Positions 2,978 to 26,314 are shown, numbered from the stretch's first letter. The stretch is DNA of 64,000 bases from an uncultured bacterium (GCA_949297765.1 CASFTV010000008.1:2137-66136); one strand, 5' to 3'. Notes: a model not told the origin generated them from the sequence alone. Numbers and translations are program-made.

Positions 2978-3706
2978 TCAGCGGAGCAGGTCCAGATTGA
3001 ACGTTTGAATCGCCCGTCCGTCCACGGAAATCCATTTGAGCGTGAACGGCCCCCGGCGGGAGGAGACGGAACCGGAAACAAAAAGGAACGGAGCCTTCCG
3101 CCCATGGATGAAGAGCTCTTTCAATCCGTCACTTCCCTCGACGAGAGTATTCGTAATCGGATCCGGAGTCAGAACCGAGTTGTTCCAGGAGGAATATTTG
3201 GGCTGCCGGCTGGACATCAGAGCGACTCCCGACGAGAGCTTTGTCATCCGTCCGCCATAATACACCGAGGAATCCGGCGTCCACTCCCATGCATGCCCGT
3301 CGCACCGGGCATTCCAGACCATCGTCACCTGATACGAGGAAAAAAACTTTGTATTCTCATTGGTCGGAGCAATCTCATCATGCGCCGGACAGAACATCAT
3401 TCCCCGCATGCTCTTCTCCGAATCCGGAATCCCCAGATAGCGGGCAAGATAATTCCGAAGCAGCCTTCCGGTATTGTTGCTCACCTCCGGGAGCTGGTCG
3501 TCCGAATCCGAGCAGTACATCGTCGTCGCCGTGCCGAGCTGTTTCAGATTGCTGGTGCACTGTGCCTCCTTCGCCGCATCGCGCGCCTTCTTCAGTGCCG
3601 GAAGAAGCATCCCGGAAAGGATGGCAAGGATGGCAATAACGACCAGGAGTTCTATAAGGGTGAAATTTCTTTTGTTCCGATCCACTTTCTCCTCCCGGTT
3701 TTCCAT
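2978..3706 (-). CDS. Prepilin-type N-terminal domain protein (pseudopilin-like, degenerate H-X9-SG C-terminus), cassette A
   Basis: N-terminus ...[28 protein letters not shown] is a class III signal-like segment with Glu at +5. C-terminal [13 protein letters not shown] is an H-X9-SG variant. An alternative start is the in-frame GTG at 3685, preceded by GGGAGGAG. That would give a 7-aa leader like the paralogs. Confidence 0.85.
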
Positions 3707-3736
3707 TTTCCGTTTTCGATTTCTTATTTCATTATA

Positions 3737-3765
3737 ATTATAGCAAATTCATTCCGGAAAATCAA
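3737..3765 (-). promoter_or_regulatory. Sigma70-type promoter for the pseudopilin-CBM-hydrolase operon
   Basis: The minus strand reads TTGATT-17 nt-TATAAT with TGC immediately upstream of the -10 (extended -10, TGCTATAAT). It lies about 30 nt upstream of ATG 3706. Confidence 0.6.
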
Positions 3766-3805
3766 TCCCCGGCAGAGTTTTTTCATGAAACATTTGCGAT
3801 ACAAT

Positions 3806-3833
3806 TTGAAACAAATGAAACACATGCTATACT
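3806..3833 (+). promoter_or_regulatory. Sigma70-type promoter for the LacI-family gene, overlapped by TGAAACA repeats
   Basis: TTGAAA-16 nt-TATACT with an extended -10 (TGCTATACT). (A/T)TGAAACA occurs three times (3786, 3807, 3816) across the -35 and spacer. Confidence 0.55.
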
Positions 3834-3858
3834 ACCCTCAAAAGGAGAATCCGCCCCC

Positions 3859-4806
3859 ATGAAAGCAACCGTCCGATCCATTGCGAAAGCGGCGCAGGTT
3901 TCCCCTGCGACCGTTTCCCGCGTATTCAGCGGCTCCGCCCGGGTCAATCCGCAGGTGCGGGCACAGGTTCTGAATCTTGCACGGGAACTCGGTTATCACG
4001 GCTCGGAAGGACGCAATATCGCCTTAATCACAAGCGGGAACACGTTTTTCGGCTATGACGGCATGATTCTGGATGCGCTCCAGTCTGAGCTGGCACATCG
4101 GAAATTCCGGGCGATTCTGATTCCGCTGTTCAGTCTGCCCTGTCTGGATGAATGTGCCTTTGCGGGAGCAATTTCCATTGTTTACACCAGCGGACTGGAA
4201 AAGATCTGGAGCCGGAACCGGGCGGCGCCGCTGGTATGCATCAACACCATCGGATATCATCTGGACGGCATCTATCAGGTGAGGTCCGATGAAACCAGGG
4301 GGACGGAACTGGCGCTGAAACACCTGTTCGAGTTCGGACACCGGAAAATCGGGATGGTGACTTTTGCAAGCGATCCGTCCCAGTCCAAAGCCTTCCCTCT
4401 CCGGGTTGAGGCCTTTCAGCGCTTTCTTCGGGAACATGGGGGTACGGGGAAAATTGCCAACGCAATCTCCATCACCCGTGTGCCGGATGCCGTTCGCATG
4501 CTGCTGGATGCGGGAGTCACCGCGATTTTTGCAGTGGGGGAATCCATCGGCCTTCCGGTTACACATGCGCTGAAACTGTTCCACCGCGGAATTCCGGAGG
4601 ATATTTCTCTGATCTCCTATGAAAACAGGGGGATTTCCGAACACATGGATCCCCCGCATACAACGATCGGCCAGCGAATGGACCGTCTGGCCGCCGCGGC
4701 AGTGGATCTGATAGAAAAACAGCTGAACGGGGAACACAACCTTTCCGACATTTCGGTGGACTATTATCTGCGCCGCCGCGACAGTGTCATGCCGCCGAAG
4801 CAGTGA
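3859..4806 (+). CDS. LacI-family transcriptional regulator
   Basis: N-terminal HTH MKATVRSIAKAAQVSPATVSRVFSG...ARELGYH, followed by a periplasmic-binding-protein-like sugar-binding core. AAAGGAG RBS. Divergent from the cassette A operon. Confidence 0.9.
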   Translation: MKATVRSIAKAAQVSPATVSRVFSGSARVNPQVRAQVLNLARELGYHGSEGRNIALITSGNTFFGYDGMILDALQSELAHRKFRAILIPLFSLPCLDECAFAGAISIVYTSGLEKIWSRNRAAPLVCINTIGYHLDGIYQVRSDETRGTELALKHLFEFGHRKIGMVTFASDPSQSKAFPLRVEAFQRFLREHGGTGKIANAISITRVPDAVRMLLDAGVTAIFAVGESIGLPVTHALKLFHRGIPEDISLISYENRGISEHMDPPHTTIGQRMDRLAAAAVDLIEKQLNGEHNLSDISVDYYLRRRDSVMPPKQ

Positions 4807-4833
4807 CTTCCGCCGTCCGGCGGCGCATTCCTA

Positions 4834-7800
4834 TTATTCCCGGGTCAGCAGAGAGGAGAGCGTTCCGCCGGGCAGAAAATCGGTTGCCATGCGGAACCGG
4901 AGTTTTCCGTCGCGGTATTCCGCCGGGATCTCCCGGTCCGCCGGAGTCCCGTCCAGTTCCAGCGGGACAATCCGCATGTTGTGCGGCAGGGAGAGGACCA
5001 TCTCCGCAGAACCGCGTTCCAGCATCTGGGGAAGACCTCCCCAGCTGAGCAGAATCCGCCGGCTTTTGTCCTCGAAGCGCAGTCCGTCGTTGGCAAGATC
5101 GGTCAGCTGGACGAGCAGGATTTTCCGGCTGTCCGTCAGAGATTTCCCGTCCAGCGACATCAGGGCGACGGTCTGAAACCCGCTGAGCTTCGCCGACACG
5201 ATAACCGATCCGCTCTGAGTTCCCGATCCGGTCAGCACTTCGCTCCGTGGAGTCACGATCCGCATGGATTTTTCATTCCGGTTCAGCGTGATCTCTTTTG
5301 TGGAGGAGGTGATTTCGCCGCGTTTGCGCAGGGATCCCAGAGCGGACCGCGCTTCCTGTGAAAGGTTCTTCTCCCAGTTTTTCCGGAGCGGATCGACCTT
5401 TTTCACGCCGGGAATGTTCCTCTGCTCCGTCAGGGAACCGATCCGTCCGAAGAGGCCGAGTCTCTGGAAATCCATCGGATACGTTCCGGCGCGGCTGTTG
5501 CCCTTCAGCGAACGGATCTGTTCCGGTTTGAGTTCAAACGCATACGCGGGATCCGCGGTTTTGACGTCGCCCCGGACAAAGAGCATGTAGAGGATCCGTT
5601 CCGCCATCTGCGCCTGAATATTGTTGACGATGTCAAAATGATTCAGTGCGCGATCGGGATTTCTCATGCCGGTGATTCCGTGAGACCAGGCAAAGCGGTA
5701 GAGACCGTCCCAGTCCTGCAATCCGGCATATCCTCCGAAGAGGGCCGGACACTCCGCGCGCCAGATGTTCGGCACGCAGAAATTGAACTCCGTCACGGTG
5801 AACGGTTTTCCGAACACGCGAGTTGCCATCAGCTCCCGCGGCGCCGCGGCTTCAGCGCCGATCGACGAACGGTTGTGAAACACAAACGGGATCCCCCAGC
5901 GCTTCTGCGGAAACCGCGGATGATCCCAGTACTGATGATTGTCCACATGATCCAGACCGGAACGAAGCCCGGCAATGGGAAACACCATGTAGTTGTTCAG
6001 ATCGGTCACGAGCGCCTTGAGTCCGACCTCCTCCTTCAGGAATCGCATCTGCTCCCGGATGCACTGCTCCTGAAGAGAATTGAGAAATTCGATGAAAAGA
6101 CCGTTCCGTGTGATCCTTTTTTCATCGGCGGAAAGAGAATTTTCACGCAGATACTCCTCAAACTTCCGCAGATAGATTCTGCGGGCGCCGAACGAGGTCC
6201 GGACGCTGTCCCAGACGCCGATCAGCGGATTCTCGTTCACCAGATTCAGGGAGTAGAGAACCGGATCCCCGGCGAGGGAGAGGCCGGTATAGGGATTTTT
6301 CGCGCACAGAACCTTCCGGGCGAACGCCTTCCAGTTCCGCATCGCGGCCGGACTGATCGGGATCAGATTTTTCATGCTGTATTCGCCGGTCCGGTCGAAT
6401 TCCGGGATCCGGTCGCCGTCCTTCAGTTTCCGGCTGGCGTAAAGGTCGATGCAGACATAGAATCCGCGCTCCTTCAGCCGGGCAATCAGGAAATGGAACT
6501 GATCCAGCTTCTTCGGATCAATGGTGAGACTGTCGGCGGCCTTGCGGTCCAACAGTCCCTCCTCGAAATGGTGGAGCCGGACCGTAATGTAGCCGAGCCG
6601 TTCCGCATTCCGGAGGAACTGTTCGACCTCCGCGCGGTTCGGGTAATTGGCACTCCCGACAAGATTCGGCCCCAGCAGACGGATCCGCTTCTCCGGAGCC
6701 TTCTCAAACACGAAATGACCGTTCCGATCGGCAATAATATGACCGTATTTTCCCGCGGGCATCTCGCGGAAGACGGAAAAATCCAGCGGAGAATCCTTCG
6801 CCGTCGTCCCGCCGAACCGGATCGGCAGCCACTCCGGCCCCTTCCGGACGATAAACTCATCCTGCAGCGGAAAACGAGCCCGCCCGTCCGCGAAAGCGGC
6901 TCCGGCGATCATCCAGACCACATCTCCGCCCCCCCTGACAAACTCCAGATGCACCGGCTTCCCCTTCAGCGGAAATGCGGAAAGATACAACCCGATCTCC
7001 GCGGAAGGCACTCTTCCGTTCCATACAAGATGCGCATTCTGTCCGGACAGCGGATTGTACCAGTTTCCGCAGTCGCGCCCGGCGGCAACGGTCAATTTTT
7101 CCGACCGGCCGTCCTCATACCGGATCCGGAGAAAGCCGACCGGCGCTCCTCCCACGGGAGTCCATGCGGAAGCGTGAAGCAGATAGAGATAGCGCATTCC
7201 CTGCGGGAAACGGGAGATCTCCACTGCGGCGGACTCCGGTCCGAGCCCCTGTCCGAGCACCAGACACGATTTTCCTCCGTTCCGATCCGGATTCACCGTG
7301 TCGATCCGGACATTGTAAAAATTGTGCTTCCCGGTTTTCAGGGAACGGAGATCCATTTCCGCCCCCTGCCCGGTCCAGCCGGGGAATTTGCCGTCGTCGC
7401 GGAAGCTCCGGTTGAAAATCCCGGAAAGATCCAGCGGAACGGACTTCACATCAAGCCGGGAGAAATCATACCGGAAATCCAGCGCGAGATTCCAGTTTTT
7501 CACCGTTTCCGGATGCCGTTTTTCGGGCAGAAAGCGCAGCTGATAATACTCCGTTTCGCCGCGGACGAATTTTCCTGTGCAGAACAGATAGAATTTTCCG
7601 GAAACTGCAAAACAGCCGTGGGGATCCCGGACTTCGACCTTCCGCGCCTTTCCGCCGAAGACATTCTTTTTCCGGAAAGCCGGCGGCATGGAAACCGTTT
7701 TCCCATCGACCTTCAGTTCAATTTTCTTATTCAGAGGCAGATCGACCCCCAGAAATACCATTTTACACGGGACAGGTTCCTTCCGGGCGTCCAGACGGAC

Positions 7801-8100
7801 TTCCCAGCGGAAATTGTCCTCCGCCTCCGCCTGAATGGTTTCCGTGATCCGGAAAAGGTCGAATTCCCCTTTCAAGGAAAACTCCTTCTTCGAGTGTTTC
7901 GGATACCCGGCATCCGGTTTCACACGCGACTGGCCGATCGGATTCCACGCAGGAGTATACCGGAGCATGGAAAAGCGGTAGCGTCCGTCCAGAGAGAATC
8001 CCCCGTCGGGGGAAATCTGCACACTTTTCCCGAAATCCGCAGTTGAAGCGAATGGAAGAAATAGAAGGGTGATAAAGATTGTTTTTAAAAACACGGTCAT
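4834..8100 (-). CDS. Secreted multi-domain clan GH-A glycoside hydrolase (GH5-like TIM barrel), cassette B
   Basis: 1088 aa. Signal peptide MTVFLKTIFITLLFLPFASTAD. TIM-barrel-type motifs ITVRLHHFE, LNLVNENPL (NE acid/base) and FTVTEFNF (TE nucleophile). AGGAGA RBS in the 18-bp gap after the pilin-like gene. Confidence 0.75.
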   Translation of the reverse strand: MTVFLKTIFITLLFLPFASTADFGKSVQISPDGGFSLDGRYRFSMLRYTPAWNPIGQSRVKPDAGYPKHSKKEFSLKGEFDLFRITETIQAEAEDNFRWEVRLDARKEPVPCKMVFLGVDLPLNKKIELKVDGKTVSMPPAFRKKNVFGGKARKVEVRDPHGCFAVSGKFYLFCTGKFVRGETEYYQLRFLPEKRHPETVKNWNLALDFRYDFSRLDVKSVPLDLSGIFNRSFRDDGKFPGWTGQGAEMDLRSLKTGKHNFYNVRIDTVNPDRNGGKSCLVLGQGLGPESAAVEISRFPQGMRYLYLLHASAWTPVGGAPVGFLRIRYEDGRSEKLTVAAGRDCGNWYNPLSGQNAHLVWNGRVPSAEIGLYLSAFPLKGKPVHLEFVRGGGDVVWMIAGAAFADGRARFPLQDEFIVRKGPEWLPIRFGGTTAKDSPLDFSVFREMPAGKYGHIIADRNGHFVFEKAPEKRIRLLGPNLVGSANYPNRAEVEQFLRNAERLGYITVRLHHFEEGLLDRKAADSLTIDPKKLDQFHFLIARLKERGFYVCIDLYASRKLKDGDRIPEFDRTGEYSMKNLIPISPAAMRNWKAFARKVLCAKNPYTGLSLAGDPVLYSLNLVNENPLIGVWDSVRTSFGARRIYLRKFEEYLRENSLSADEKRITRNGLFIEFLNSLQEQCIREQMRFLKEEVGLKALVTDLNNYMVFPIAGLRSGLDHVDNHQYWDHPRFPQKRWGIPFVFHNRSSIGAEAAAPRELMATRVFGKPFTVTEFNFCVPNIWRAECPALFGGYAGLQDWDGLYRFAWSHGITGMRNPDRALNHFDIVNNIQAQMAERILYMLFVRGDVKTADPAYAFELKPEQIRSLKGNSRAGTYPMDFQRLGLFGRIGSLTEQRNIPGVKKVDPLRKNWEKNLSQEARSALGSLRKRGEITSSTKEITLNRNEKSMRIVTPRSEVLTGSGTQSGSVIVSAKLSGFQTVALMSLDGKSLTDSRKILLVQLTDLANDGLRFEDKSRRILLSWGGLPQMLERGSAEMVLSLPHNMRIVPLELDGTPADREIPAEYRDGKLRFRMATDFLPGGTLSSLLTRE

Positions 8101-8118
8101 CGTCTCTGATCTCCTGAT

Positions 8119-8847
8119 TCACTTCTGTTTCAAATCCCACTTTTCCTTATAGATGCGACTGGTTGCGGAGTTTGCCCCGTCCCAGAGATCCCGGAAGGAG
8201 AGCGATGCGGCGTGACCGTCATGGAACACACCGCTCAGCCGTCCTGAATGCCGGTATGCCGGCATATTGTTGATGGAGGAGGAATAGATCTCTCCGTAAA
8301 CGTCATAGTAGTTTGCTTTGTTTGCCCGTTCATAGCAGACCATCCAGTCGGTGCCATCCGTGAAGAGCAGCTTGGAGGAGGGGTGGTTCACCTGCGTACT
8401 CCGAATTCCCCGATACATTCCGCTGCTGTGTTCGGAGAAACTGGGCAGGCCCTCACGATTCATTCCATACGAGTTCATCACCTGGAAACAGCCGGGCCAG
8501 GAAGGCGACGTAACAGACCGGGCGAGAGATGCATTCGGGCAAATCAGGCTGCTCGGCCAGTAGTCGCCGACCTCCGGAGTCAGTTTCGCATACGGACGGA
8601 GCTGATAAACCCACCGGAGTGTCGACAAATCTCCCAGCGTATTCACGCCCGGACACCATCCGTCATAATCGTCCTGATAGAAAATCACAAATTTCCCGAA
8701 GGAATTCAGAATATTCATACAGGTGATCGCGCGCGCCTTCTCTCTTGCGGCATTCAGAGCGGGCAGAAGGATCGCCGCAAGAATCGCGATGATTGCAATC
8801 GTAACAAGCAGTTCTATCAGGGTAAAGTTTCTTGTTCTCTTTTTCAT
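8119..8847 (-). CDS. Prepilin-type N-terminal domain / H-X9-DG protein, cassette B
   Basis: Trimmed from track ORF 8119-9006 to ATG 8847, which is preceded by [47 protein letters not shown]-terminal HSGRLSGVFHDGH is H-X9-DG. Confidence 0.88.
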   Translation of the reverse strand: MKKRTRNFTLIELLVTIAIIAILAAILLPALNAAREKARAITCMNILNSFGKFVIFYQDDYDGWCPGVNTLGDLSTLRWVYQLRPYAKLTPEVGDYWPSSLICPNASLARSVTSPSWPGCFQVMNSYGMNREGLPSFSEHSSGMYRGIRSTQVNHPSSKLLFTDGTDWMVCYERANKANYYDVYGEIYSSSINNMPAYRHSGRLSGVFHDGHAASLSFRDLWDGANSATSRIYKEKWDLKQK

Positions 8848-8881
8848 TCCTTTTTCTCCTTTGTTATGAGACAGATTGATT

Positions 8882-10069: not shown

Positions 10070-10084
10070 GCACCTCCTTTTTAT

Positions 10085-10096
10085 TTATTCGTATAA
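10085..10096. promoter_or_regulatory. 12-mer TTATTCGTATAA, candidate operator half upstream of the beta-propeller gene
   Basis: This is the exact reverse complement of the 12-mer at 11104-11115. It lies between the LacI-family stop (10114) and the propeller start (10069). Confidence 0.4.
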
Positions 10097-10113
10097 GCGT
10101 TTTTCAAAAAAAA

Positions 10114-12319: not shown

Positions 12320-12348
12320 ATTATACTTGCAGAACCGCTGTTTTTCAA
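12320..12348 (-). promoter_or_regulatory. Sigma70 consensus-like promoter for the GntR-family gene
   Basis: The minus strand reads TTGAAA-17 nt-TATAAT. The -35 overlaps the stop codon of the pilin-like gene (12345-12347). Confidence 0.55.
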
Positions 12349-13142
12349 TCTCCCGCTTTCCAGGTCCACATTCCTTCCGGCCAGCTGGGTGCGCCGGCGA
12401 CCTTGCTGATCGTCTCCATCGGCCGGAACGACGTCACATGTCCGTCAACAAACAGATAGTTGAACCGTCCCCGGTGGGAGCGCGGATAAACGCCGGGATC
12501 CATCTGCTGCTCCACGGTGGAAACATTGCTGCAGGAACCGTTTCCGAGATAGTTGACATCGTTCGGGAACTCGGCATACATGAATGTTCCGGACGGCTGC
12601 GTCACCTTGCTCGCCAGCAGAGACCACTCGAAATAGGAGATTCCGCGAACCCGGGCGGGACTCCCCGCGGGCTGATCCCCCGGATTGCCGTAGGTTGCGC
12701 TGACAATGGAGTACGACCGCATTCGTTCACTGATCGACCGGTGCGACGGACAAAGATAGATTTTTGAACGTTTCCCCGCCGGACAGCTTGACGCTTCCGC
12801 ATCCGCCCAGGAAAAATCCCGTCCGTCATATTTTCCCGCTCCGAGGAGATCATCCCACGAAATCTGCACGGACCCCGATCCCTCGGAAGCGCAGGGAAAA
12901 TATCCCTGATGATTGTCAATGTAATTGATCGTTGCAAGCCCGATCTGCTTCATATTGGCCGTACACGAAATCTGACGCGCCTTCTCCCGCGCGCTGTTCA
13001 GCGCAGGAAGAAGAAGCCCCGCAAGGATCGCAATGACCGCAATGACGACGAGGAGCTCTATAAGGGTAAATGCAGACCGCCTCCCGGCTCCGGAAAAGAG
13101 AACCGATCTCTTCTGCCGATGGTCCGTTGTTTTTCTCTTCAT
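12345..13142 (-). CDS. Prepilin-type N-terminal domain / H-X9-DG protein, cassette C
   Basis: ...[31 protein letters not shown] with a 24-aa leader. AAGGAGAG RBS. C-terminal [13 protein letters not shown] is H-X9-DG. Confidence 0.88.
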
Positions 13143-13173
13143 TTTATCTCTCCTTCTGTTTTATTTTAATGGG

Positions 13174-13198
13174 CTCCGGAGGGAAATCCGCTCCGGAG
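13174..13198 (-). other. Stem-loop between hydrolase and pilin-like gene (CTCCGGAG-9 nt-CTCCGGAG)
   Basis: Two copies of the self-complementary octamer CTCCGGAG are separated by 9 nt in the 64-bp gap. No U-tract follows. Confidence 0.45.
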
Positions 13199-13206
13199 AA
13201 ATTCAC

Positions 13207-16200
13207 TCATTCGGACTGTCCGGCCGCCGTCAGCGACCGCCCGAGCGCATCGGGTGCGGACGGGCTTTCCACATAAAAAACGGTTCCGTTGAACTCCGTC
13301 GGGAACGTCAGAGGATTCCCATACAGATCGCTTCCCTTCGCCCCCTTCAGGGAACAGTCGACCGTTGTCTTTTTCGCCGTATAGCGGCCCGAGACCACAG
13401 CGACAGAGCGTTTCCCGTCGGAAAACAGATAGGCCCACAGATCTTTCCGGAGGGCCGTCCTGCGCACGAATTTCATCCCTTCCAGACGGCGCGCCATCGC
13501 AGAGTGCGCGGCAAGCATCGGATGCGGAGAACCGTCCGCGCAGAACAGGACGAGGAAATTCGGAGCGCTGGCAAAATCCATGTAGCAGTGCGCGGAATAC
13601 AGAAAGATTCTCCGCACGCCGCAGCCGAGCATGGAAAGCAGATAACGGACATTCCGGTCCGCGATGGCGGAGAAATCCTCCCGGTTTTCCCACGGAACGG
13701 TGTGTTTGTACATTCCGGCGTACCGGAGGGATTTGTCGCCGCTGACGCTTCCTCCGCTCGCGCCCTGCCCCTCCGACATGTAGACCGGTTTTCCGTTCAG
13801 AGCGTTCCGGCGGACGAGGAGGCCGAGAGCCTCGTCATACGCGATCTCGCACGCATCTCCGGGATATCCGGTGACGCGCGGCGTGTAGAAATGGAAATCG
13901 ACAGTGTCGCAAAAAGCAAGTCCGCCTGCGTCATACACGCCTTTTGTCCACTTCTCCCCCCGGACTCCGGCCGTGGTGTTGAAGCCGGAGATCTTCGCGG
14001 CCGGATTGACTTTTTTCGCCGCGGCACAGGCGCTTTTCATCATTGCGGCGAAATCCGCCTCCGGATGACGGCTGGTGATATAGCCGTTGTTCTCGCGGGA
14101 TTTCCGGTTGAAATCGACCGCCCACCAGGCGACGATCCACGGTTCGTTCCAGACGAACCAGTCGTCGATCACGCCTTTGTAGCGGGCGGCGACCGTCGAG
14201 ACATAGCGTTCAAACTCCTTCATTTCCAGAGGACGGAAATAGCGGTCATGATATGCGATCTCCGTCCGTCCGGTATTGACCCGGGAAAGAAAACTTGCCC
14301 ATTTCGGCGCGGTGCCGAGCTGTCCGAAGAGCCGGAGATGGTGATCGCGATAGCGTCTGATCTCGTCATCCCGGAACACCCACTTTCCTTTTTCGGGTTC
14401 AAGCCAGAACCAGCCGGTGAAATCGCCGCCGGCATCGTGCAGACGCACCCAGTTGACTCCGGCAGCCTTCACCGCCTTCAGCGAATCATCATTTGCCAGA
14501 ACATGGATTCCGAACGGCGAATCGGGCGCATCCTTGCCCCAGTAAAGCGGTTTCTCCAGCCGCGTGACCACGATTTCGTTGACCGGCGAGACCGCTTCTG
14601 TTCCGCGGAACGCCTGCACTTCGACGCGGAACTGACCCAACGGCCTCTCCGGAAAAACCAGATAGTTCAAGCGGCCGCTCCGATTCGTTCCGGAGACCGC
14701 GGAAACCGGAAGATCCCGGCATTCGCCGTACAGATTCGCGACCCGGGCTTTCAGGGTCACGCCGTCCGCTTTTCCCGAAACGTGATAGAGCACAACCGGC
14801 GCCTCCCCGGCGAACTGGATGCGCGAACCCGAAACCGCCGATTCCGGAACGGCAAGGGAAACTTCGCACTCTCCATCGGTTTCATATCCCTTCCGGTTTT
14901 CCGGCGCGGCGCGGAAGGAGTCGACATGGAGAATTCCCGTCCCGACCAGCCGGAACGTGAACGCCCGGGCATCCGCAGGAGGGGTGAACGGAACAACCAC
15001 TCTCTTCCAGCGGTCGGATGGAGTCAGACTGACGGATGCCAGCTTCCGGTTCTCCGTCCAAATTTCCGCAGCATAGCGTCCGCTTCCGCGGCAGTCGAAC
15101 GAAACCGCGTTCTTCACGCCCGGATCCGCCACGTTGAACGGTTCGCTGCAAAGCCCGAGCCGTTTTCCCGGAAGAGATTCGAGCTTCAGCGAAGCACAGC
15201 CGGACGGCCCCTTGACGGAGGGATCCGGCGCAATCCTCCCGGAGTAACAGACGCGGTGACGGGTCCATCCGCTCTGCAGTCCGAGCGGGAAACGCGTATT
15301 GCGGAAAAAGTTCCGGCTGGAAAGCGGCGGCCGACGGATCGGCTGTTTCTGTTCCTCGCACTCCTCCAGCTTCAGGTCGACGATGTCGAAAACACCGTTC
15401 TCCTCAAAATTCATCATCAGGGCGACCGGGAGATCCGGTTTGTTCTCCGGCACTTTCAGTTCGATGCTCTGCCGTGACCATCCCTCTCCGGGGAGCAGGG
15501 CCCCCGATGCCAGAACCGTGTACGGCAAAGGAACTATGCGCAGACTCATTGTCACCGGTCCGCCGGTCAGATTGCGGACATACGCCGTCAGCCGGTAGCT
15601 CTTTCCCGCCTCCACGTTTGAAAGCGGTGCGCGGAACTGCGGAGCCCCCTTCTGAATTTCAAAACGGAGAAAATGTTCAGGCCCCAGATTCACCACCTTC
15701 GAAGAGGCTTCTCCCTTCATGAAATGGACAAAATCCTGATTCCACGGTTCGGGAAGAACACCGCGGAAGGTCCCGGCACCGCGCTTCGAGCCGTCGCGGA
15801 CCTTTTCCGTGAAGTTCATGTCGAGGAGCACCGCATGCCCGCGTTCATCCGGAGCGAGTTCTTCGACGGAGATTTTGCGGAAATCCGTATTCCCTTCGCC
15901 GTCAAGGATCAGGAACAGCCCCAGCGGAACCGGGGATTTTTTCTCCGGAGAGACAATCCATGACATCGTCTTCCACTGCGGCGAAACACCGATCCTCCAC
16001 GAGCACAGCGTTGTATACGGCTGCGGGACCATCCGCAGGAGCAGCCGGACATCGCTCTCCGACGTGTTGCGCACAACGGCGCGGATCCGATACCTTCTGC
16101 CGGGAAGCAGTTCAGGAAGCGGAAGATAAAACTGCGGAGCGCCCGATGCGATCTTCCGCACCTTGAATCTCAGGAAATTCCCGTCCGGATCTTTCACGCT

Positions 16201-16410
16201 CTCCGTTTCCACGGCGGATCGGGTCCAGGAGACAAAATTCTCTCTCCAGTCCGGCGGAAGAGCGCCCAGAAAATATCCGTGCCCCTCTCCGCGCCGATCC
16301 TCCCGGACCGTCCGTCCGCCTCTGCTGAAATCGCTTTCCAGCAATGTCGTTCCTCCGCACACAAGGATCTCTGTCATGCAAAGGAACAGCAGAAAATATT
16401 GCTTCAACAT
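13207..16410 (-). CDS. Secreted multi-CBM clan GH-A glycoside hydrolase, cassette C
   Basis: 1067 aa. Hydrophobic N-terminus MLKQYFLLFLCMTEILVCGG. Central TIM-barrel-type motifs VNWVRLHDAGG, DDWFVWNEPW (NEP acid/base) and KPVYMSEGQG (SE nucleophile). N-terminal repeated beta-sandwich-like segments. Confidence 0.75.
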   Translation of the reverse strand: MLKQYFLLFLCMTEILVCGGTTLLESDFSRGGRTVREDRRGEGHGYFLGALPPDWRENFVSWTRSAVETESVKDPDGNFLRFKVRKIASGAPQFYLPLPELLPGRRYRIRAVVRNTSESDVRLLLRMVPQPYTTLCSWRIGVSPQWKTMSWIVSPEKKSPVPLGLFLILDGEGNTDFRKISVEELAPDERGHAVLLDMNFTEKVRDGSKRGAGTFRGVLPEPWNQDFVHFMKGEASSKVVNLGPEHFLRFEIQKGAPQFRAPLSNVEAGKSYRLTAYVRNLTGGPVTMSLRIVPLPYTVLASGALLPGEGWSRQSIELKVPENKPDLPVALMMNFEENGVFDIVDLKLEECEEQKQPIRRPPLSSRNFFRNTRFPLGLQSGWTRHRVCYSGRIAPDPSVKGPSGCASLKLESLPGKRLGLCSEPFNVADPGVKNAVSFDCRGSGRYAAEIWTENRKLASVSLTPSDRWKRVVVPFTPPADARAFTFRLVGTGILHVDSFRAAPENRKGYETDGECEVSLAVPESAVSGSRIQFAGEAPVVLYHVSGKADGVTLKARVANLYGECRDLPVSAVSGTNRSGRLNYLVFPERPLGQFRVEVQAFRGTEAVSPVNEIVVTRLEKPLYWGKDAPDSPFGIHVLANDDSLKAVKAAGVNWVRLHDAGGDFTGWFWLEPEKGKWVFRDDEIRRYRDHHLRLFGQLGTAPKWASFLSRVNTGRTEIAYHDRYFRPLEMKEFERYVSTVAARYKGVIDDWFVWNEPWIVAWWAVDFNRKSRENNGYITSRHPEADFAAMMKSACAAAKKVNPAAKISGFNTTAGVRGEKWTKGVYDAGGLAFCDTVDFHFYTPRVTGYPGDACEIAYDEALGLLVRRNALNGKPVYMSEGQGASGGSVSGDKSLRYAGMYKHTVPWENREDFSAIADRNVRYLLSMLGCGVRRIFLYSAHCYMDFASAPNFLVLFCADGSPHPMLAAHSAMARRLEGMKFVRRTALRKDLWAYLFSDGKRSVAVVSGRYTAKKTTVDCSLKGAKGSDLYGNPLTFPTEFNGTVFYVESPSAPDALGRSLTAAGQSE

Positions 16411-19144: not shown

Positions 19145-19185
19145 TAAAAATTTTTAAAATTGCTTGTTTTTATATTAATCAACCC

Positions 19186-19214
19186 TTGACAACTGATTAA
19201 TCATGTGCTATAAT
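19186..19214 (+). promoter_or_regulatory. Perfect-consensus sigma70 promoter with extended -10
   Basis: TTGACA (19186-19191), a 17-nt spacer, then TATAAT (19209-19214) preceded by TGC (TGCTATAAT). Confidence 0.7.
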
Positions 19215-19237
19215 ATATGCCGACGGGAGGATTCGGA

Positions 19238-20611
19238 ATGTCGAACATCACCAAAATCATGACCTTTACATCCACGGTGGAACAGCTGATCCGGGACAGG
19301 GCGCCCGGCTTTACAGACCGCCTTCCGGGACAGCGGGAGCTGGCCTCCCGTTTCAATCTGTCCCAGAGCCTGGTCCACATCGGGATGACGGAACTGAAAA
19401 AACGGGGCGTGATTGTCATTGAACCGTACAAGGGAGCGTCTGTCGCACAGGCGGAGAAGAAGGCGGAGGAAGCCGAACCGGTCTCACCGCTGACCCTCCT
19501 GATCTGCGAGGACAACCCCCGGCAGAGAGCGTTCTGGCTCCGTGCCGTTGCTCTGTTTGAAGAGCGGTCGCCGGGAATCCGGGTGAGTACACGCTTCCTG
19601 CCGTCAGACCGTCCGCCGGAAGATGTCGTTCCGGGGCGACGGAATACGGTGGTGATCCGTCCGGGGGATTACCGGAAAGGGCCGCACCCCTGCGTTCCTC
19701 TTTCCGAACTTCTTCCCGCGGAAAGACTTGCCGATCTGCAGAACCGTCTTCTTCCGGGGCTTCATGCGGTGGACTGGAGCATTGCTCTTCCCTTCCAGCT
19801 GCAGGTCATGGCACAGATCTACGATGCGCGGGGAACCGACGGCCCTCCGCCGGAGGATTTTCCCGCCTATCTCGACTGGCTCAGTCACTGCTACGGGGCA
19901 CACGCGATTCCGGTTCAGAATCTGGATCTGCTGCGCGACTGCTGCGGGCTTGACCGGGCGGAAATGCTGATTCCGGATGAAAACGGACTCTCCCCGGAAC
20001 TGCGCCTGTTTCTGACATCGCTGGAGACCATCGGGCGTCATCAGCTGATGGAACCCGCATGCGAAAAAAACAGCGATCAGATCCGCTTCCTGCTGGAAAG
20101 AAGAATCCGGACGGCGGAGGTGTTTTCGCACCGCTGGACGGAACGCGGGATCTTCCAGAATGAAACCTACCGGTTCTCCCGTCCGCGGAGTGCGGTGAAA
20201 CGGCGGAGACTGCCCTACTTTCTCTCGGTCGCCGTCCTTGCCGGTTATGAGGAGGTTTCCGAAGCGGAGCGCCGCTGGTTCGAATTTCTCGCCGATCCGG
20301 AGCTTCAGATCCTTCAGATGCAGGAGGGTCTCGGACTTTCCCCGTATGCGGACCTTCTGAAGGAATCCTGCGGTGAACGCCTCCGGGATGTTGCGGAATG
20401 GGCGGCTCAAACGGTATTCGAGGACCGGAGAGAACCCCTGCTGGAGACACTCTGGAGCGAGGTCCTCCACAGACTGCGCGAACCGGTTGTTCTCCCTCTT
20501 CTGTTCGGTCAGATCACCGGAGAACGGGCGTTTTCCCTCATTTCCGAGCGGAATCTTCTGGATCCGGATGCCCTCCGGAACTGCATTGCAGAGCAGCTTT
20601 CTCTGGATTGA
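19238..20611 (+). CDS. GntR-type wHTH regulator with large (about 390 aa) uncharacterised C-terminal domain, cassette D
   Basis: Start moved to ATG 19238 (GGGAGG 7 nt upstream). The track start 19217 lies only 2 nt downstream of the -10 hexamer. LPGQRELASRFNLSQSLVHIGMTELKKRGVIVIEPYKGASV is a GntR wHTH. Confidence 0.7.
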   Translation: MSNITKIMTFTSTVEQLIRDRAPGFTDRLPGQRELASRFNLSQSLVHIGMTELKKRGVIVIEPYKGASVAQAEKKAEEAEPVSPLTLLICEDNPRQRAFWLRAVALFEERSPGIRVSTRFLPSDRPPEDVVPGRRNTVVIRPGDYRKGPHPCVPLSELLPAERLADLQNRLLPGLHAVDWSIALPFQLQVMAQIYDARGTDGPPPEDFPAYLDWLSHCYGAHAIPVQNLDLLRDCCGLDRAEMLIPDENGLSPELRLFLTSLETIGRHQLMEPACEKNSDQIRFLLERRIRTAEVFSHRWTERGIFQNETYRFSRPRSAVKRRRLPYFLSVAVLAGYEEVSEAERRWFEFLADPELQILQMQEGLGLSPYADLLKESCGERLRDVAEWAAQTVFEDRREPLLETLWSEVLHRLREPVVLPLLFGQITGERAFSLISERNLLDPDALRNCIAEQLSLD

Positions 20612-20671
20612 ACGGATAAAAAACTATGCATACAACGAATTTTTTATTGTAATACAGGAAAGGCGGAACGG

Positions 20672-23600
20672 ATGAAGCGACGACAATTTCTGTTTTTTTT
20701 CTCTCTGCAGTTTCTCCTGACGGCGGGAGCGGCGGAGAACGTGAACATCGACGCATTCACAAGCGGACGGTGTTATGTCCATAACGGGGCGAATCTTCGC
20801 CAGGAGCTGCGTTTTTTCCCGCAGGGACCGGACGGGCGGCCCGCAACCCGTCTGACCTGGGATTCCGGGAAAAAGAATTATGCGGAACTCAATCTCCGGA
20901 AGGCGCCGCAGTTTCAGGAGTTCCGGGCACTGGAACTCCGTCTGGAGTACCATTCCGACGGAAGCGGCCAGCTGAAGAGCTTCGGATTCCGGATGTTCGA
21001 TGCCAAAAACGAATGTTTTCAGTGGATCGTCCCCGCGCATGACAAGACCCCCGGCTGGAAAACGGTCCGCGCAACCCTTTCGCCGGACAAATTCACCGAC
21101 AGCTGGGGCAGGGAAAAGACCGGAAAAATCCGCTTTCCAGTCCGTCTGATCGGTTTTGCCGCCGGATTTGAGCAGGGATCTTCCGGACCGGTCTACTTCC
21201 GGGAGATGAGCTGCCGCATTCCGGAGGCCCGGCCGACCATTCCCTCCCTGACCCGCCGCTGGACCTTCGACGATGCGGCGGAACGCTGGAACTCCTGGGG
21301 CGGCGCACGGATGAAAGACCATCGGATTTTCTGTGAAAAAGCGGGCAACGTCTTTCTGAACGAGCGGATGTTCCCGCTGCATCCGGTCGCACAGCCGGAA
21401 AGCATCCGGATCGACTGTACGCTGGAATCCGGTTCCGCGGAACTTTTCCTGACCTTGTTTGACGGAAACCGGAAATCCGTCACACTTCCTGCGCGGCAGG
21501 TCGGCGCGGGGCGCAGCAGCGTCGTCTGGGAGACGGGAAACCTGACTCCGCCGCTTCAGCTTTCCCTCCTGCGCATCCGCACCCGGTCCGACCGGACCGG
21601 CATCCGTCTTCATGCGCTGGAGACCTGGGAACGCAAAACGCCGGAATCCTCGGTTGCCATGCGCGTGGAAACCGGCCATCCGCTGCATCTGATCCTTCCG
21701 GGCGGAGAGCAGAAAGCTGTTCTCCATCTGGAAAACCGGACGCGGGAAAAACTCCGTCTTCAGGCGGAATTTGAGATCTGCGATTTCTTCGGGCCGGTGG
21801 ATTCCTTTTCCCGCCTTCTGGAGTTTTCTCCGCGGCAGACCAGAAGCATTTCCCTCCCGGTGGAGCGGTATCCGCGGGATGGAATCTTCTTCATCCGGAG
21901 CGCATTTCACGAGCCGGGATCCGGAGAGATCTTCCGGGATCAGCGCTGTTTTGCGCGGATGATTCCGGCCGGACCGACGCCGTTTCCGGATTTCCGGAAA
22001 AAAGACGGATTCCTGTTCGGGATCTGCACGCACACGGAACGATGGGGACGCCGCGACCGGGAACTGGAGGTTCTGGCGGCGGCGCTGGCGGGAGCAAAGA
22101 TCATCCGCAACTCCGTCGGATGGGGAGAGATCCAGCCGAAGAAAGATGTCTGGAATTATGCCATGTTCGACGAACTGGTCACCCGTTACCGGAACAGCGG
22201 CATGGAGCTGCAGGGCGGGTTCGGTCTCTGCGCGGGATGGGGCAAGGCGGCCGACGCCCGGCTCCGCAACGGCAAACCCGATCCGCTGAACAACGGACGC
22301 TCCATGCCGGATCTTGATGCGTGGACCTTCTACGTCCGGAAGACCGTCGCGCGCTACAGGGATCAGATCCGCTACTGGGAGGTCTGGAACGAACCGGACC
22401 TGCCCCACTTTGCAAATTTCGGTGTGGAGGACTATCTCCGTCTTCATGCGGCGACCTTCCGGGCCGTCCGGGAAGCGTCTCCCTCGGCCAGGGTCATGAA
22501 CGGCGGATTCGCCGGGCTCGGCAGCGATGCGCAGATCCGCTATCAGCGGACCTTTCTCGAACAGGGACGCAATACTCTTGATCTTCATGCGTTTCATCAG
22601 CACGGCGATTTCCGCTACTACCGGAAAATCATCGACGAAATCTTTCTTCCCCAGCGGCGGGAAACCGGTTGCAGCCGCATTCCCTGGTACGCCAACGAGA
22701 CCGCGATGCACTCGCTCGGCGGACAGGATCATGCACAGGCGGAAACCCTTTTCAAGAAACTGATCTTCTCCTGGGCGCGCGACGCGATCGGATACACCTG
22801 GTACGATCTGCGCAACGACGGCTTCAGCGCCACCGACGCGGAACACAACTACGGCATGATGACCAATGATTTCTATCCGAAAGCCGTCTATCCGGCCTAC
22901 GCCGCCCTCGCCAGGATGTACCGGGAGATGACCTTCCTGAAGGAGCTGCATCCGGCGCAGGGAGAATACCTCTACCTTTTCCGGAACGGGAAAGAGCGCG
23001 AACTTGCCGCGGCGGCATGGCGGGAACCGGTCGAAGCCGCATTTTCCGGAACGCTGTTTGCCGGCGTCACGGACGCCGCGTCGATGGAAATCGCCGACAT
23101 CATGGGCAACCGCCGCCCGCTCGCGCTGCACAACGGACGCTTCCTTCATCAGAGTTCGGCCACTCCGGAAACACTTCTGCTCCACAATGCTTCGACTCTC
23201 AGCTTTGTTCCAGTCCTCCGGGCGGAGACCTCCGATCCGGCGGCGGAAGGACGGACGGTCCGGGTGAGAGTCCGCATGAACAATCCGTTGGACACCCCTC
23301 TGCGCATGAAACTGCGCCTGAACGCTCCAGTGGAATTCAAGCCGCTTTCCGGAACAGAGTGCACCCTGAACGCCGGTCCGAAAGGGGAAAGTTCCGCGCA
23401 GATCGCGTTCCGAGTCGGGAAAACCGGAGAAAACAACTTCCGCCCGTTCCGCCTCGGCATCGCGGCGGAAAGCTCCGACGGTGCCACGGCTGAACTCGGA
23501 CTCCCGGTCTATCCGGCAAAAGCTCTTTCCGGGAAAATGAACCTGAGGAAGCCGGATTTCCTTCTGAAACACCGCCATCAGGTGGTCTCTCTCTACGACA

Positions 23601-24133
23601 AAGTTCCGGGCCGTTCCATCTGGCAGGGGGAACAGGACCTCTCCGCCGCGCTCTCCTTCGGGTTGGACGGGAAATTTCTCCACCTGACCGCGGTTGTACG
23701 GGATGATGTTCATCGTCCGTCGGGCAGCGCTTCGCAGATCTGGAAAGGAGATTCCGTCCAGTTCTTCCTGGAACTTCCGGATCGCGGAACCTGGGTCGCC
23801 GGCGGTGCGCTGACCGCCTCCGGGAAAACGGAAAAATGGATCTGGAACGCCCCCTCCGGCTTCTCCGCAGAACAGGCAGTACGGACTCTGGACATCCGGG
23901 CGGACCGGAAAGGAAATGTCACAACCTATGTTTTCCGCATTCCGAGAAAGGAATTCGGTCTGTCAAAAACGCTGGCGGAGAAGGGATTCCGCTTCAACTT
24001 CCTGGTCAACGACAGCGATACGGAACGCGACGGCCGGGAAGGCTGGATCCGTCTTGCTCCGGGCGCCGGAGATGAAGTCGCACCGCTCAACTATCCGATT
24101 CTTTTCTTCCCTCCGGAATCGCCCGGCGGATAA
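20672..24133 (+). CDS. Secreted clan GH-A glycoside hydrolase (GH39/GH5-like) with C-terminal CBM9-like domain, cassette D
   Basis: 1153 aa. Signal peptide MKRRQFLFFFSLQFLLTAGAAE. Motifs GWGEIQPKKDVWNY, IRYWEVWNEPDL (acid/base) and PWYANETAM (nucleophile-type). The C-terminus GDSVQFFLE...FNFLVNDSD...GWIRLAPG is CBM9-like. Confidence 0.78.
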   Translation: MKRRQFLFFFSLQFLLTAGAAENVNIDAFTSGRCYVHNGANLRQELRFFPQGPDGRPATRLTWDSGKKNYAELNLRKAPQFQEFRALELRLEYHSDGSGQLKSFGFRMFDAKNECFQWIVPAHDKTPGWKTVRATLSPDKFTDSWGREKTGKIRFPVRLIGFAAGFEQGSSGPVYFREMSCRIPEARPTIPSLTRRWTFDDAAERWNSWGGARMKDHRIFCEKAGNVFLNERMFPLHPVAQPESIRIDCTLESGSAELFLTLFDGNRKSVTLPARQVGAGRSSVVWETGNLTPPLQLSLLRIRTRSDRTGIRLHALETWERKTPESSVAMRVETGHPLHLILPGGEQKAVLHLENRTREKLRLQAEFEICDFFGPVDSFSRLLEFSPRQTRSISLPVERYPRDGIFFIRSAFHEPGSGEIFRDQRCFARMIPAGPTPFPDFRKKDGFLFGICTHTERWGRRDRELEVLAAALAGAKIIRNSVGWGEIQPKKDVWNYAMFDELVTRYRNSGMELQGGFGLCAGWGKAADARLRNGKPDPLNNGRSMPDLDAWTFYVRKTVARYRDQIRYWEVWNEPDLPHFANFGVEDYLRLHAATFRAVREASPSARVMNGGFAGLGSDAQIRYQRTFLEQGRNTLDLHAFHQHGDFRYYRKIIDEIFLPQRRETGCSRIPWYANETAMHSLGGQDHAQAETLFKKLIFSWARDAIGYTWYDLRNDGFSATDAEHNYGMMTNDFYPKAVYPAYAALARMYREMTFLKELHPAQGEYLYLFRNGKERELAAAAWREPVEAAFSGTLFAGVTDAASMEIADIMGNRRPLALHNGRFLHQSSATPETLLLHNASTLSFVPVLRAETSDPAAEGRTVRVRVRMNNPLDTPLRMKLRLNAPVEFKPLSGTECTLNAGPKGESSAQIAFRVGKTGENNFRPFRLGIAAESSDGATAELGLPVYPAKALSGKMNLRKPDFLLKHRHQVVSLYDKVPGRSIWQGEQDLSAALSFGLDGKFLHLTAVVRDDVHRPSGSASQIWKGDSVQFFLELPDRGTWVAGGALTASGKTEKWIWNAPSGFSAEQAVRTLDIRADRKGNVTTYVFRIPRKEFGLSKTLAEKGFRFNFLVNDSDTERDGREGWIRLAPGAGDEVAPLNYPILFFPPESPGG

Positions 24134-24264
24134 CATGCTCTCTCCGGGGGGACAGCGGAACATGAAATGAAATCAGATCCGGATGCGCGGTCAACGCTCC
24201 GGAGATTCAAACTCAACAACAGCGGAACCGGGGAACGGTTTCCGTCAAAAAAAAGGATTTGAGA

Positions 24265-24993
24265 ATGAAAACGAAACAGGCCTTCACCCTTATAGAGCTC
24301 CTCGTTGTAATTGCGATCATCGCGATCCTTGCCGGCATGCTTCTTCCGGCGCTGAACAGAGCGCGGACAAAGGCGCGGTCGGTGGCATGCCTCAGCAATC
24401 TCAAACAGATCGGTCTGGCGCTTGCTCAATATGAAAACGGAGAATATTTTCCGCCGCGGAAGCAGGGAAGCGCCACGGAGGGCTGTGTGACATGGGAGGA
24501 GTTTGTCGTTCAGGGAATGGGAGGCAACGGGGCGCATGAGAACCGTTTTCAAACGGCGGTCAAATATCTTTCCTGCCCGATGGATCCGCTTCCCGCGGCG
24601 GGAGGGAAAAAGACCAAGCTGAGCTACGTCTTCAATTCCGGCGACGCCGACACATCCGGCAATGTTCTGACTCTTACCGATACTCCGGTTCCCGGCGACC
24701 ATGCCTTCCGCCTTGACCGGATCGTCGGAACATACGGAAAAAACAAAAACAGAGGCGGTTCCACGGTTCTGATCACAGACCGCATCAATGTCCTCGGCGG
24801 CGTGGAAAACCAGTACAGCCAGGGACCGACGGCAATCTGGTGGGACTTCTCCAAAGATAACGGGCATCCCGCCATGCTCGGCGAACGCAACGCACTCATG
24901 TCCGGCATGCATGTGCGGAACATCCCCGCCGCCCCGTTCATCACCGGAACGGAACTGCTGATCCGCGAAAACTTCAGCTGGAAACTGAAATAA
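24265..24993 (+). CDS. Prepilin-type N-terminal domain protein (degenerate H-X9-DG), cassette D
   Basis: The track start 24259 is TTG. ATG 24265 has AAGGA 7 nt upstream. [31 protein letters not shown]-terminal ...[12 protein letters not shown] is a degenerate version of the GxxNxxFxDGHV region. Confidence 0.85.
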
Positions 24994-24994
24994 T

Positions 24995-25020
24995 CCTCCC
25001 GGAAATCCGGAACCGGGAGG
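24995..25020. terminator. Hairpin between convergent genes (CCTCCCGG-10 nt-CCGGGAGG)
   Basis: 8-bp perfect stem immediately after stop 24993. The T-tract is weak (GATCGTTTC). Confidence 0.45.
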
Positions 25021-25028
25021 AGATCGTT

Positions 25029-25481
25029 TCAGAGTTCCGTTATACCGATCACTCCATAGCCGGAACGGAACTTGTTCAATCCGATTTTCAGAGTCTGTCC
25101 GTTGCCGGTGCGTCCGGTGACAAAGAAAAGATTCCTGGAATCCGTTACGGAAAAGCAGCGGATGTCGTTAAGTGAAAGATTCCTTCCGTGTCGCCGGAGA
25201 GCAGCCAGCGAGTGTTCCACAGGATCAATCCCGGTCTCGGCCATCTGCAGTTTCCGCTCGGTCTCGGAAAAGGGGAAAAGACGGACAAGGGCATCCGCTC
25301 CGTTCTTATTGTACAGAGCAAGCAGGGTGTCCAGCAGCGACCGCAGCTCCTTTTCCTGCGCCGGGGGAGCGGGAATCTCCCGCTGAATCCGCTCCGGGTG
25401 GACGTCCGATCCGCCGTTCACCCAGAAAACTCCGCCAATTCCAAGAATCAAACACAGAATCATCCATCCTTTTTTCTTCAT
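25029..25481 (-). CDS. Small membrane-anchored hypothetical protein co-transcribed with pilin-like gene E
   Basis: 150 aa with an N-terminal TM segment (MKKKGWMILCLILGIGGVFWV). It starts 14 bp after the upstream gene. No recognisable motif. Confidence 0.55.
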   Translation of the reverse strand: MKKKGWMILCLILGIGGVFWVNGGSDVHPERIQREIPAPPAQEKELRSLLDTLLALYNKNGADALVRLFPFSETERKLQMAETGIDPVEHSLAALRRHGRNLSLNDIRCFSVTDSRNLFFVTGRTGNGQTLKIGLNKFRSGYGVIGITEL

Positions 25482-25495
25482 TGCAGTTCTCCCTG

Positions 25496-26314
25496 TTATT
25501 CCCGGACCCCGTAAAGATCGAGTCCGGAATCTCCGTCATGATCGGCGCTGGAATTCAGACATCCGATTCCATGATCCACGGAAAAATTGGCCGTCCCCAT
25601 CGTATTGGAACTGGCGTGATAGTATCCCGTCTGTGCCGACGCATGGCCGTCAACCCAGAGAATGTTCGCCCGCTTCTGATGGCGGAAGTGCGTCTTGTTG
25701 CAGCTGATGAGGTTGTTGACCGCCAGACCGGCGGAAGCTGAGAAGGTTGCGGAATCCCCGACACTGGCAACGCTCGACGGACGTTTGATCTTTCCCGGCC
25801 GCGCCGGGGCATACTCTCCGGAGGAAAGCATTGTCCCGAACATCATGGGAGTCCGGTGAACCACCGAATTGATTCCATAGCCGCCTCCGTTCGCGTGATC
25901 CACCGTCTGTGTTCCCAGCATGCCTTCAACCGAGGCGTCCGGACAGATGAAAACATTGGTCGACCGCTCCTGCATCACCGTCGCATCCACTCCGGCTTTC
26001 TTCAGGTAATTGGCAAGATATCCGTCCTGTGTAAAGTCGATCACATCTTTCCCGTCTTCCTTGTCAAGCCCCATGCCGCACCAGTACTTCCCGGCTCCGC
26101 CCATCAGATATTCCCGGGCGGGGCAGACATACTCAAAATCGGCGGCATACATCGCAAGCGCCGTCCCGATCTGCTTCAGACGCGACATACAGGAAACCGC
26201 GACTCCTTTGTTCCGCGCCGAACCCAGCGCGGGAAGAAGCATCCCCGCAAGAATCGCAATGATCGCAATTACAACCAGAAGCTCTATCAAAGTAAAGCTC
26301 TTTCTCCTGAACAT
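25496..26314 (-). CDS. Prepilin-type N-terminal domain / H-X9-DG protein, cassette E
   Basis: [31 protein letters not shown]-terminal [13 protein letters not shown] is H-X9-DG. Confidence 0.88.

Follow-up and report, generated by a model that had tools for sequence, protein, structure and literature searches.

Pilins and pseudopilins that cannot be cleaved fail to assemble, and in the bacteria studied so far the Gly residue preceding the cleaved bond (position −1) is described as "absolutely critical" (PMC4471445). Gly or Ala is the accepted range at this position (PMC3244431), and a far more permissive A24 peptidase, PibD, is known from archaea (PMC4187195). In this study, we analyzed a 64-kb stretch of DNA from an uncultured bacterium (GCA_949297765.1, CASFTV010000008.1:2137-66136; hereafter, the window), which encodes five pilin-like proteins, A to E, with Asn, Asn, Ala, Ala and Ser at −1. 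The original prediction, that none of the five carries Gly at this position, was confirmed on the DNA. Comparison with their relatives shows that position −1 varies freely in the phylum Lentisphaerota, both in the DUF1559 family and in genuine type II secretion system (T2SS) pseudopilins, whereas DUF1559 proteins of the sister phyla have only Gly or Ala. Full-text literature searches returned no prior report of a bacterial lineage without Gly or Ala at −1 or of Lentisphaerota pilins, and retrieved papers on the expansion of N_methyl plus SBP_bac_10 proteins in Planctomycetes (PMC8567305).

Five pilin-like genes in the window

A degenerate DNA search located exactly five FTLIEL sites in the window, with Phe codons from 3664 (−), 8826 (−), 13070 (−), 24283 (+) and 26296 (−), where the number expected by chance is 0 (100 shuffles). 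A relaxed six-frame motif scan of the 64 kb detected no further FTLIEL-like motifs. The five sites belong to the following genes.

2978..3685, minus strand, pilin-like protein A (N_methyl and DUF1559, H-X9-SG); leader V/M-DRNKRN, −1 Asn codon 3665-3667, Phe+1 codon 3662-3664
8119..8847, minus strand, pilin-like protein B (N_methyl, DUF1559 below cut-off, H-X9-DG); leader MKKRTRN, −1 Asn codon 8827-8829
12345..13142, minus strand, pilin-like protein C (N_methyl, DUF1559 and TIGR04294 H-X9-DG); leader of 24 amino acids, −1 Ala codon 13071-13073
24265..24993, plus strand, pilin-like protein D (N_methyl and DUF1559, degenerate H-X11-SG); leader MKTKQA, −1 Ala codon 24280-24282
25496..26314, minus strand, pilin-like protein E (N_methyl and DUF1559, H-X9-DG); leader MFRRKS, −1 Ser codon 26297-26299

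In the translations, the residues before Phe+1 read KRN/F (A), TRN/F (B), RSA/F (C), KQA/F (D) and RKS/F (E). FTLIELL is invariant and Glu occupies +5 in all five proteins, in agreement with the original prediction, and none of them contains the PROSITE-type G-F motif. The open reading frames (ORFs) are intact in every case, and Shine-Dalgarno-supported starts give short, K/R-rich leaders of 7, 7, 24, 6 and 6 amino acids for A to E, respectively. The GTG start at 3685, which had been put forward for A, follows GGGAGGAG and yields the 7-residue leader, while the ATG at 3706 (ORF 2978-3706) has no such site upstream. Gene B starts at the ATG at 8847 after AAGGAG, and an extension to 9006 is unnecessary. 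Gene C starts at the ATG at 13142 after AAGGAGAG, with the 24-residue leader described previously. Gene D has a Shine-Dalgarno-like site before the ATG at 24265 (the ORF extends from 24259), and gene E starts at the ATG at 26314 after GAGGAG. The residue at −1 is the same whichever start is chosen.

All five proteins match Pfam N_methyl PF07963 (28.2-33.3 bits, cut-off 21.2) and TIGR02532 (21.9-29.7 bits, cut-off 16.3), and the hidden Markov model alignments of A, B and E (N, N and S at −1) start only from Phe+1. The helix start FTLIELLV(V/T)IA(I/V/L)(I/L)AIL is common to the five, with a hydrophobic stretch of approximately 21 residues beginning at Phe+1. The scores for DUF1559/SBP_bac_10 (PF07596, cut-off 23.3 bits) lie above the cut-off for A (28.8), C (48.2), D (31.6) and E (23.5) and below it for B (19.0), and the matches span mainly the first 35-100 profile positions. 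TIGR04294 (H-X9-DG, cut-off 19 bits) is exceeded by C (20.4) and not by E (16.3). By eye, H-X9-DG is recognizable near the C-terminus of B, C and E, while A has H-X9-SG, as had been reported; D has H-X11-SG, which is more degenerate than originally described. The nearly invariant R-H...N....DGH residues form a C-terminal hairpin. An AlphaFold2 model of E (predicted local distance difference test score 91.1) has a 52-residue N-terminal helix (residues 9-60) followed by a beta-rich globular domain, which agrees with a type IV pilin fold. Only the helix aligns to type IV pilins in the PDB: 1ay2 (probability 0.97), 5vxx and 6xxd (0.47-0.80). No alignment in the structure search reaches E<=0.001, and beyond the helix the globular domain matches nothing in the PDB. 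The five genes appear to encode members of a greatly expanded pilin-like family of the Planctomycetes-Verrucomicrobia-Chlamydiae (PVC) group, whose proteins combine a class III signal peptide with a long alpha-1 helix and a globular domain of the DUF1559/H-X9-DG type. An identification as GspG was rejected: the window proteins score only 24-35 bits against the GspG equivalog TIGR01710 (cut-off 88.85), via the N-terminal helix.

Position −1 in Lentisphaerota

A protein identical to E is encoded on up to 10 independent metagenomic contigs, and its named relatives belong to Victivallis vadensis, Victivallales and Lentisphaeria. These homologs suggest that the source of the window is an uncultured gut Victivallales bacterium of the phylum Lentisphaerota. 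The best 120 homologs of E, RefSeq proteins of V. vadensis included, have Ser (33), Asn (23), Lys (20), Arg (12), Ala (6), His (6), Gly (3) and other residues at −1, and the variation is already present among close orthologs with 65-86% identity (S, K, K, R and E). For a comparison between phyla, 80 organism-named loci (one genome per species) were scanned in six frames and grouped by phylum, with the following result for DUF1559 proteins.

Lentisphaerota, 58 proteins including the window's five, from approximately 30 genomes: −1 is R, S, N, C, T, G, A, P, H, I, D, Q, Y, E, V or L (3.50 bits)
Verrucomicrobiota, 46 proteins: −1 is G or A only (1.0 bits)
Planctomycetota, 21 proteins: −1 is G or A only (0.7 bits)

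Residues other than Gly and Ala are thus present at −1 in 50 of the 58 Lentisphaerota proteins and in none of the 67 sister-phylum proteins (Fisher p = 8e-27). The rule in Verrucomicrobiota and Planctomycetota extends to flanking paralogs that lie outside the selection imposed by the search pattern. The entropy at −1 in Lentisphaerota is indistinguishable from that at −2 to −8 (3.07-3.79 bits), and Gly occurs there at about the background frequency (4/58). Positions +1 to +7 hardly vary in any of the three phyla (0-0.13 bits in Lentisphaerota), and the step in the entropy profile coincides exactly with the canonical cleavage bond. The same split was obtained with the globular domain of E alone as query against 1.8 billion representatives. 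Among the sequences inspected, which were not tallied, relatives with an LLPAL-type helix have varied −1 residues and those with an ILFPVF-type helix have Gly or Ala. Both the pattern and its phylogenetic distribution are direct observations. They place only the Asn of A and B and the Ser of E outside the known range at −1. The Ala of C and D, which the original prediction treated as aberrant, is a normal variant of the DUF1559 family in the sister phyla and falls within the accepted range (PMC3244431).

The same variation is present in genuine T2SS pseudopilins. A control query starting at Phe+1, a chimera of a PVC-type N-terminus and the GspG consensus that was meant for Lentisphaerota GspG, matched generic GspG proteins of other bacteria from many phyla, in which −1 is Gly in 118 and Ala in 1 (n = 119). 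We also scanned metagenomes with a DNA pattern (FTLIE after a codon not starting with G, and DPWG 83-93 codons later), which gave at least 92 GspG-sized ORFs with a non-G codon at −1, many of them beside GspE-type ATPases. For the largest group among the listed matches, of the Lentisphaerota type (FTLIEVVVVIxILVTLAS...), the residues at −1 are P, N, R, S, H, F, C and M. In the other, non-Lentisphaerota groups among them, −1 is almost only Ser (23/28, among the non-G/A cases that the pattern admits), and Ser may be a regular natural −1 residue in those other uncultured lineages. Two N-terminal types occur among these non-Lentisphaerota GspG-like genes next to GspE, one being FTLIE(L/I)MLVVIIIG... 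(contigs L088, L091, L094, L105, L125, L128, L162 and others).

With the mature part of one scan protein as query, 120 relatives were listed, and the named ones among them all bear the title "type II secretion system major pseudopilin GspG" and come from Lentisphaeria, Victivallales, Victivallaceae or Lentisphaerae. At −1, the relatives have S (21), R (18), G (17), A (17), P (13), N (11), F (8), C (5), H (3), D (2), L, Q and T, so that 71% are neither Gly nor Ala (n = 118), in contrast to the GspG proteins of other bacteria (Fisher p = 1e-36). Against TIGR01710, Lentisphaerota GspG proteins that have N or R at −1 reach 128 and 147 bits, well above its cut-off. The residual Gly and Ala in some GspG sub-lineages look like decay from the ancestral state. 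In five NCBI metagenome-assembled genomes (MAGs) and one JGI contig, Lentisphaerota gspG lies in a gspD-E-F-G-H-I-J-K operon that encodes GspL/M-like proteins, the secretin, T2SSE, T2SSF, T2SSG, GspH/I/J (T2SSJ) and GspK. The GspH/I/J-like minor pseudopilins in these operons have R, R, F or P, R and R at −1. Unannotated genes upstream of gspD encode bitopic (GspL/M/C-like) proteins and not polytopic ones. In genomes of the Lentisphaerae ADurb.Bin242 type, a DUF1559 paralog with Lys at −1 (MQREK/FTLIELL; L207:13606-14520, minus strand) follows directly downstream of gspK, where the T2SS operon ends, an arrangement that physically links the DUF1559 family to the secretion system.

The requirement for Gly or Ala at −1 is therefore apparently lifted for every class III signal peptide in Lentisphaerota, beyond the DUF1559 paralogs. 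An escape from cleavage specific to the DUF1559 family was rejected, since GspG to GspJ show the same −1 pattern. This variation also affects annotation. The N_methyl models under-score the Lentisphaerota proteins, and most of the 120 listed Lentisphaerota GspG proteins have no precomputed PF07963 match despite a perfect FTLIE start. Motif rules such as PROSITE PS00409 and the PilFind-type [GA] rule are expected to miss proteins with neither Gly nor Ala. Both models and motif rules appear to penalize the missing Gly, and the pilin-like complement of gut and rumen Victivallales, which is large and lies beside glycan-degrading enzymes, is probably under-annotated.

Proposed processing of the class III signal peptides

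We lean, with moderate confidence, toward the view that the Lentisphaerota prepilin peptidase has lost its requirement at −1 (the P1 position), with −1 drifting neutrally and cleavage before Phe+1 continuing. That the proteins are actually cleaved, and that the peptidase is the altered component, we infer from the sequence comparisons described above. By a single change in trans, the leader peptidase would have stopped reading the P1 residue and would recognize the basic leader and the invariant FTLIELL helix start instead, and −1 would drift to the background composition of the leader. The proteins would be inserted N-in and cut directly before Phe+1, and the mature forms would be handled like pseudopilins by the type II secretion or type IV filament machinery. 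One change in a trans-acting peptidase would be the most economical explanation because the constraint is gone from all class III signal peptides, the mature N-terminus is frozen and the T2SS is complete. An altered-specificity peptidase, one of the two possibilities raised in the original prediction, neither of which sequence alone can prove, is favored by the phylum-wide loss in DUF1559 proteins and in GspG, H, I and J.

Several points weigh against a relaxed peptidase. A protease that accepts Pro, Asp, Phe and Arg at P1 would be unusual, and the absence of cleavage would be a simpler explanation. The counts take in related sequences, so the Fisher p-values overstate independence, and the taxon labels are those of MAG record titles. 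Pfam scans of all long ORFs of the window detected no A24 prepilin peptidase, its +/-10 kb flanks show none, and Pfam tables listed none within +/-10 kb of five Lentisphaerota T2SS operons. A phmmer search with a PilD probe (validated by Pfam matches to PF06750 at 113 bits and PF01478 at 97.5 bits), combined with a GxGDxK motif scan, gave no match in approximately 1.2 Mb of genome loci and 0.76 Mb of metagenome loci. The absence from these approximately 2 Mb is weak evidence, because the genes for prepilin peptidases often lie away from the systems that they serve (PMC6668835).

The absence of cleavage is the strongest of the alternatives, although we consider it unlikely. Lentisphaerota would have lost or outgrown prepilin processing, and the class III signal peptides of both DUF1559 and T2SS proteins would be uncleaved N-in anchors, with FTLIELL retained for its part in targeting or in contacts with the assembly platform. 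Such a loss would be consistent with a −1 position that shows no detectable constraint (3.5 bits) and includes Pro, Asp, Phe and Arg, with the lack of an A24 peptidase in every fetched locus and around the T2SS operons, and with the fractionation of Planctomycetes N_methyl plus SBP_bac_10 proteins with membranes (PMC8567305). However, many Lentisphaerota genomes conserve the full T2SS gene set, GspG-K included, and uncleaved pseudopilins are non-functional in the systems studied (PMC4471445). A leader with 3-7 Lys/Arg residues could not quit the cytoplasmic face during filament assembly, and Phe+1 and Glu+5 are invariant, as they are in the phyla that keep Gly or Ala. The suggestion in the original prediction that the window proteins are uncleaved bitopic anchors, with a biology different from that of true pilins, is weakened in the latter part because true pseudopilins look alike, and its uncleaved state survives as the rival considered here.

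A less probable alternative is that the leaders are removed by another enzyme or at another site, by a non-A24 protease, a PibD/EppA-like peptidase acquired from the archaeal type or two-step trimming, PilD/GspO having been replaced and not modified. The evidence at −1 would fit such a replacement as well as it fits a relaxed peptidase, and so would the lack of matches to the PilD probe and the GxGDxK motif in the loci searched. In addition, PibD is flexible and takes leaders of 3-4 amino acids (PMC4187195), similar to the MKKx leaders found among the homologs. However, no alternative enzyme has positive evidence in its favor, and the searched loci are a small part of any one genome. A related proposition is that Lentisphaerota operate their complete, conserved T2SS and hundreds of pilin-like proteins in an unprecedented way, either with no canonical prepilin processing and pseudopilins that work uncleaved, or with a peptidase that has no relation to PilD/GspO or has diverged from it radically. 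It is likewise doubtful; if true, both variants would contradict the rule that A24 peptidases must cleave type IV filament subunits behind a small residue. An artefact, in which wrong starts, sequencing errors or pseudogenes feign a missing Gly, is hardly credible and was rejected: gene callers do extend the N-termini of many homologs spuriously and at length, but −1 was read from the DNA beside an invariant motif, the identical proteins on independent contigs and the five intact ORFs with their Shine-Dalgarno sites argue against errors, and the pattern recurs in hundreds of proteins, including those of V. vadensis in RefSeq.

The phylum-wide freedom at −1, even in GspG, amounts to a natural experiment that may reveal what prepilin peptidases (GxGD intramembrane aspartyl proteases) recognize. 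A comparison of the Lentisphaerota enzyme with PilD should help to identify the P1-pocket residues.

Gene cassettes and comparison with described systems

The pilin-like genes of the window have the following neighbors.

1993-2931, minus strand, Sec-exported CBM4_9 protein of 312 aa, downstream of A
From 1996 and continuing past the window start, minus strand, Sec-exported GH10-like/CBM4_9 protein, downstream of A
3859..4806, plus strand, LacI-family regulator, divergent from A
4834..8100, minus strand, Sec-exported protein of 1088 aa with no Pfam match, 18 bp downstream of B
10114-11085, minus strand, ORF of 323 aa with an apparent N-terminal helix-turn-helix (by eye), downstream of C
11201-12286, minus strand, GntR plus Peripla_BP_3 regulator, downstream of C
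13207..16410, minus strand, Sec-exported protein of 1067 aa, directly upstream of C
19217-20611, plus strand, GntR-like regulator, upstream of D
20672-24133, plus strand, Sec-exported GH39/GH10-like protein of 1153 aa, directly upstream of D
25029..25481, minus strand, protein of 150 aa with an N-terminal hydrophobic signal and no Pfam match, directly downstream of E

Every pilin-like gene adjoins one or more large proteins with a Sec signal, and a LacI- or GntR-type regulator is near; the GH10, GH39 and CBM matches of the neighbors are weak. The gene for the 150-aa protein accompanies E on all six contigs that carry E. A sixth such cassette, with Ser at −1 of the pilin-like protein, lies just left of the window (L216:1949-14762). 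With window positions 1-26314, this makes at least six occurrences, in approximately 40 kb, of a LacI/GntR-type regulator together with a DUF1559 pilin-like gene and one or two genes for very large Sec-exported proteins. The large proteins are 1018-1776 aa long, with weak GH10/GH39/CBM4_9/CBM9 matches or none, and the cassette resembles a mini polysaccharide-utilization locus around a pilin-like protein. Gene order suggests that each DUF1559 paralog works with the adjacent large exported glycoside hydrolase-like protein and the LacI/GntR regulator. The partnership would perhaps be substrate-specific, possibly one in which glycans or enzymes are bound or presented at the secretion machinery. 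No secretion-machinery genes were found in the window when its long ORFs were all scanned against Pfam.

Elsewhere in the window, large ORFs (533-1097 aa) without a Pfam match (E<=0.001) are located at 16692-18293 (+), 31742-35035 (+), 41513-43300 (−), 45405-47072 (−) and 57490-59505 (+). They sit among genes for a GH20-like protein (37842-39740), a SASA/GH2_N esterase (43431-45368) and AXE1 (50203-51699). Four long genes (4834-8100, 13207-16410, 20672-24133 and 26557-29730) face antisense ORFs of almost the same length at 5638-8046 (+), 13033-15477 (+), 20624-23713 (−) and 27418-29712 (+), respectively. The antisense ORFs look like shadow ORFs of a genome rich in G and C at third codon positions (GC3 of the real genes, 0.70-0.74), and not like genes.

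Among the described systems, the T2SS pseudopilins GspG-K, substrates of the PilD/GspO A24 prepilin peptidase, share the class III architecture of the window proteins (a short basic leader ahead of Phe+1, Glu at +5 and a hydrophobic helix of approximately 21 aa), and the predicted N-terminal helix of the latter matches type IV pilins in structure. They differ in the canonical Gly at −1 (118/119), and no PDB structure matches the globular domain of the window proteins, which is not T2SSG. The Gram-positive Com pilins and others that are cut after Ala likewise deviate naturally from Gly at −1 (PMC3244431), but they still need a small residue, whereas Lentisphaerota have R, K, P, N, F, H and D. 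The N_methyl plus DUF1559/H-X9-DG family of Planctomycetota and Verrucomicrobiota is similar in its near-identical mature N-terminus, domains, size and C-terminal H-X9-DG, and in having many scattered paralogs beside exported proteins (PMC8567305). It differs in that −1 is Gly or Ala in all 67 proteins, which is not so in Lentisphaerota and in three of the five window genes. The PibD/bindosome system of Sulfolobus is archaeal, and its substrates have unrelated domains and no conservation of Glu+5; a sugar-related function of DUF1559 proteins is suggested by gene neighborhood. Nevertheless, PibD provides a precedent for an A24 peptidase, relaxed as to both cleavage site and leader length, that processes many non-filament substrate-binding proteins for sugar uptake with class III signal peptides (PMC4187195), and in parallel to the bindosome, the many pilin-like paralogs of the window adjoin genes for glycan-degrading enzymes.

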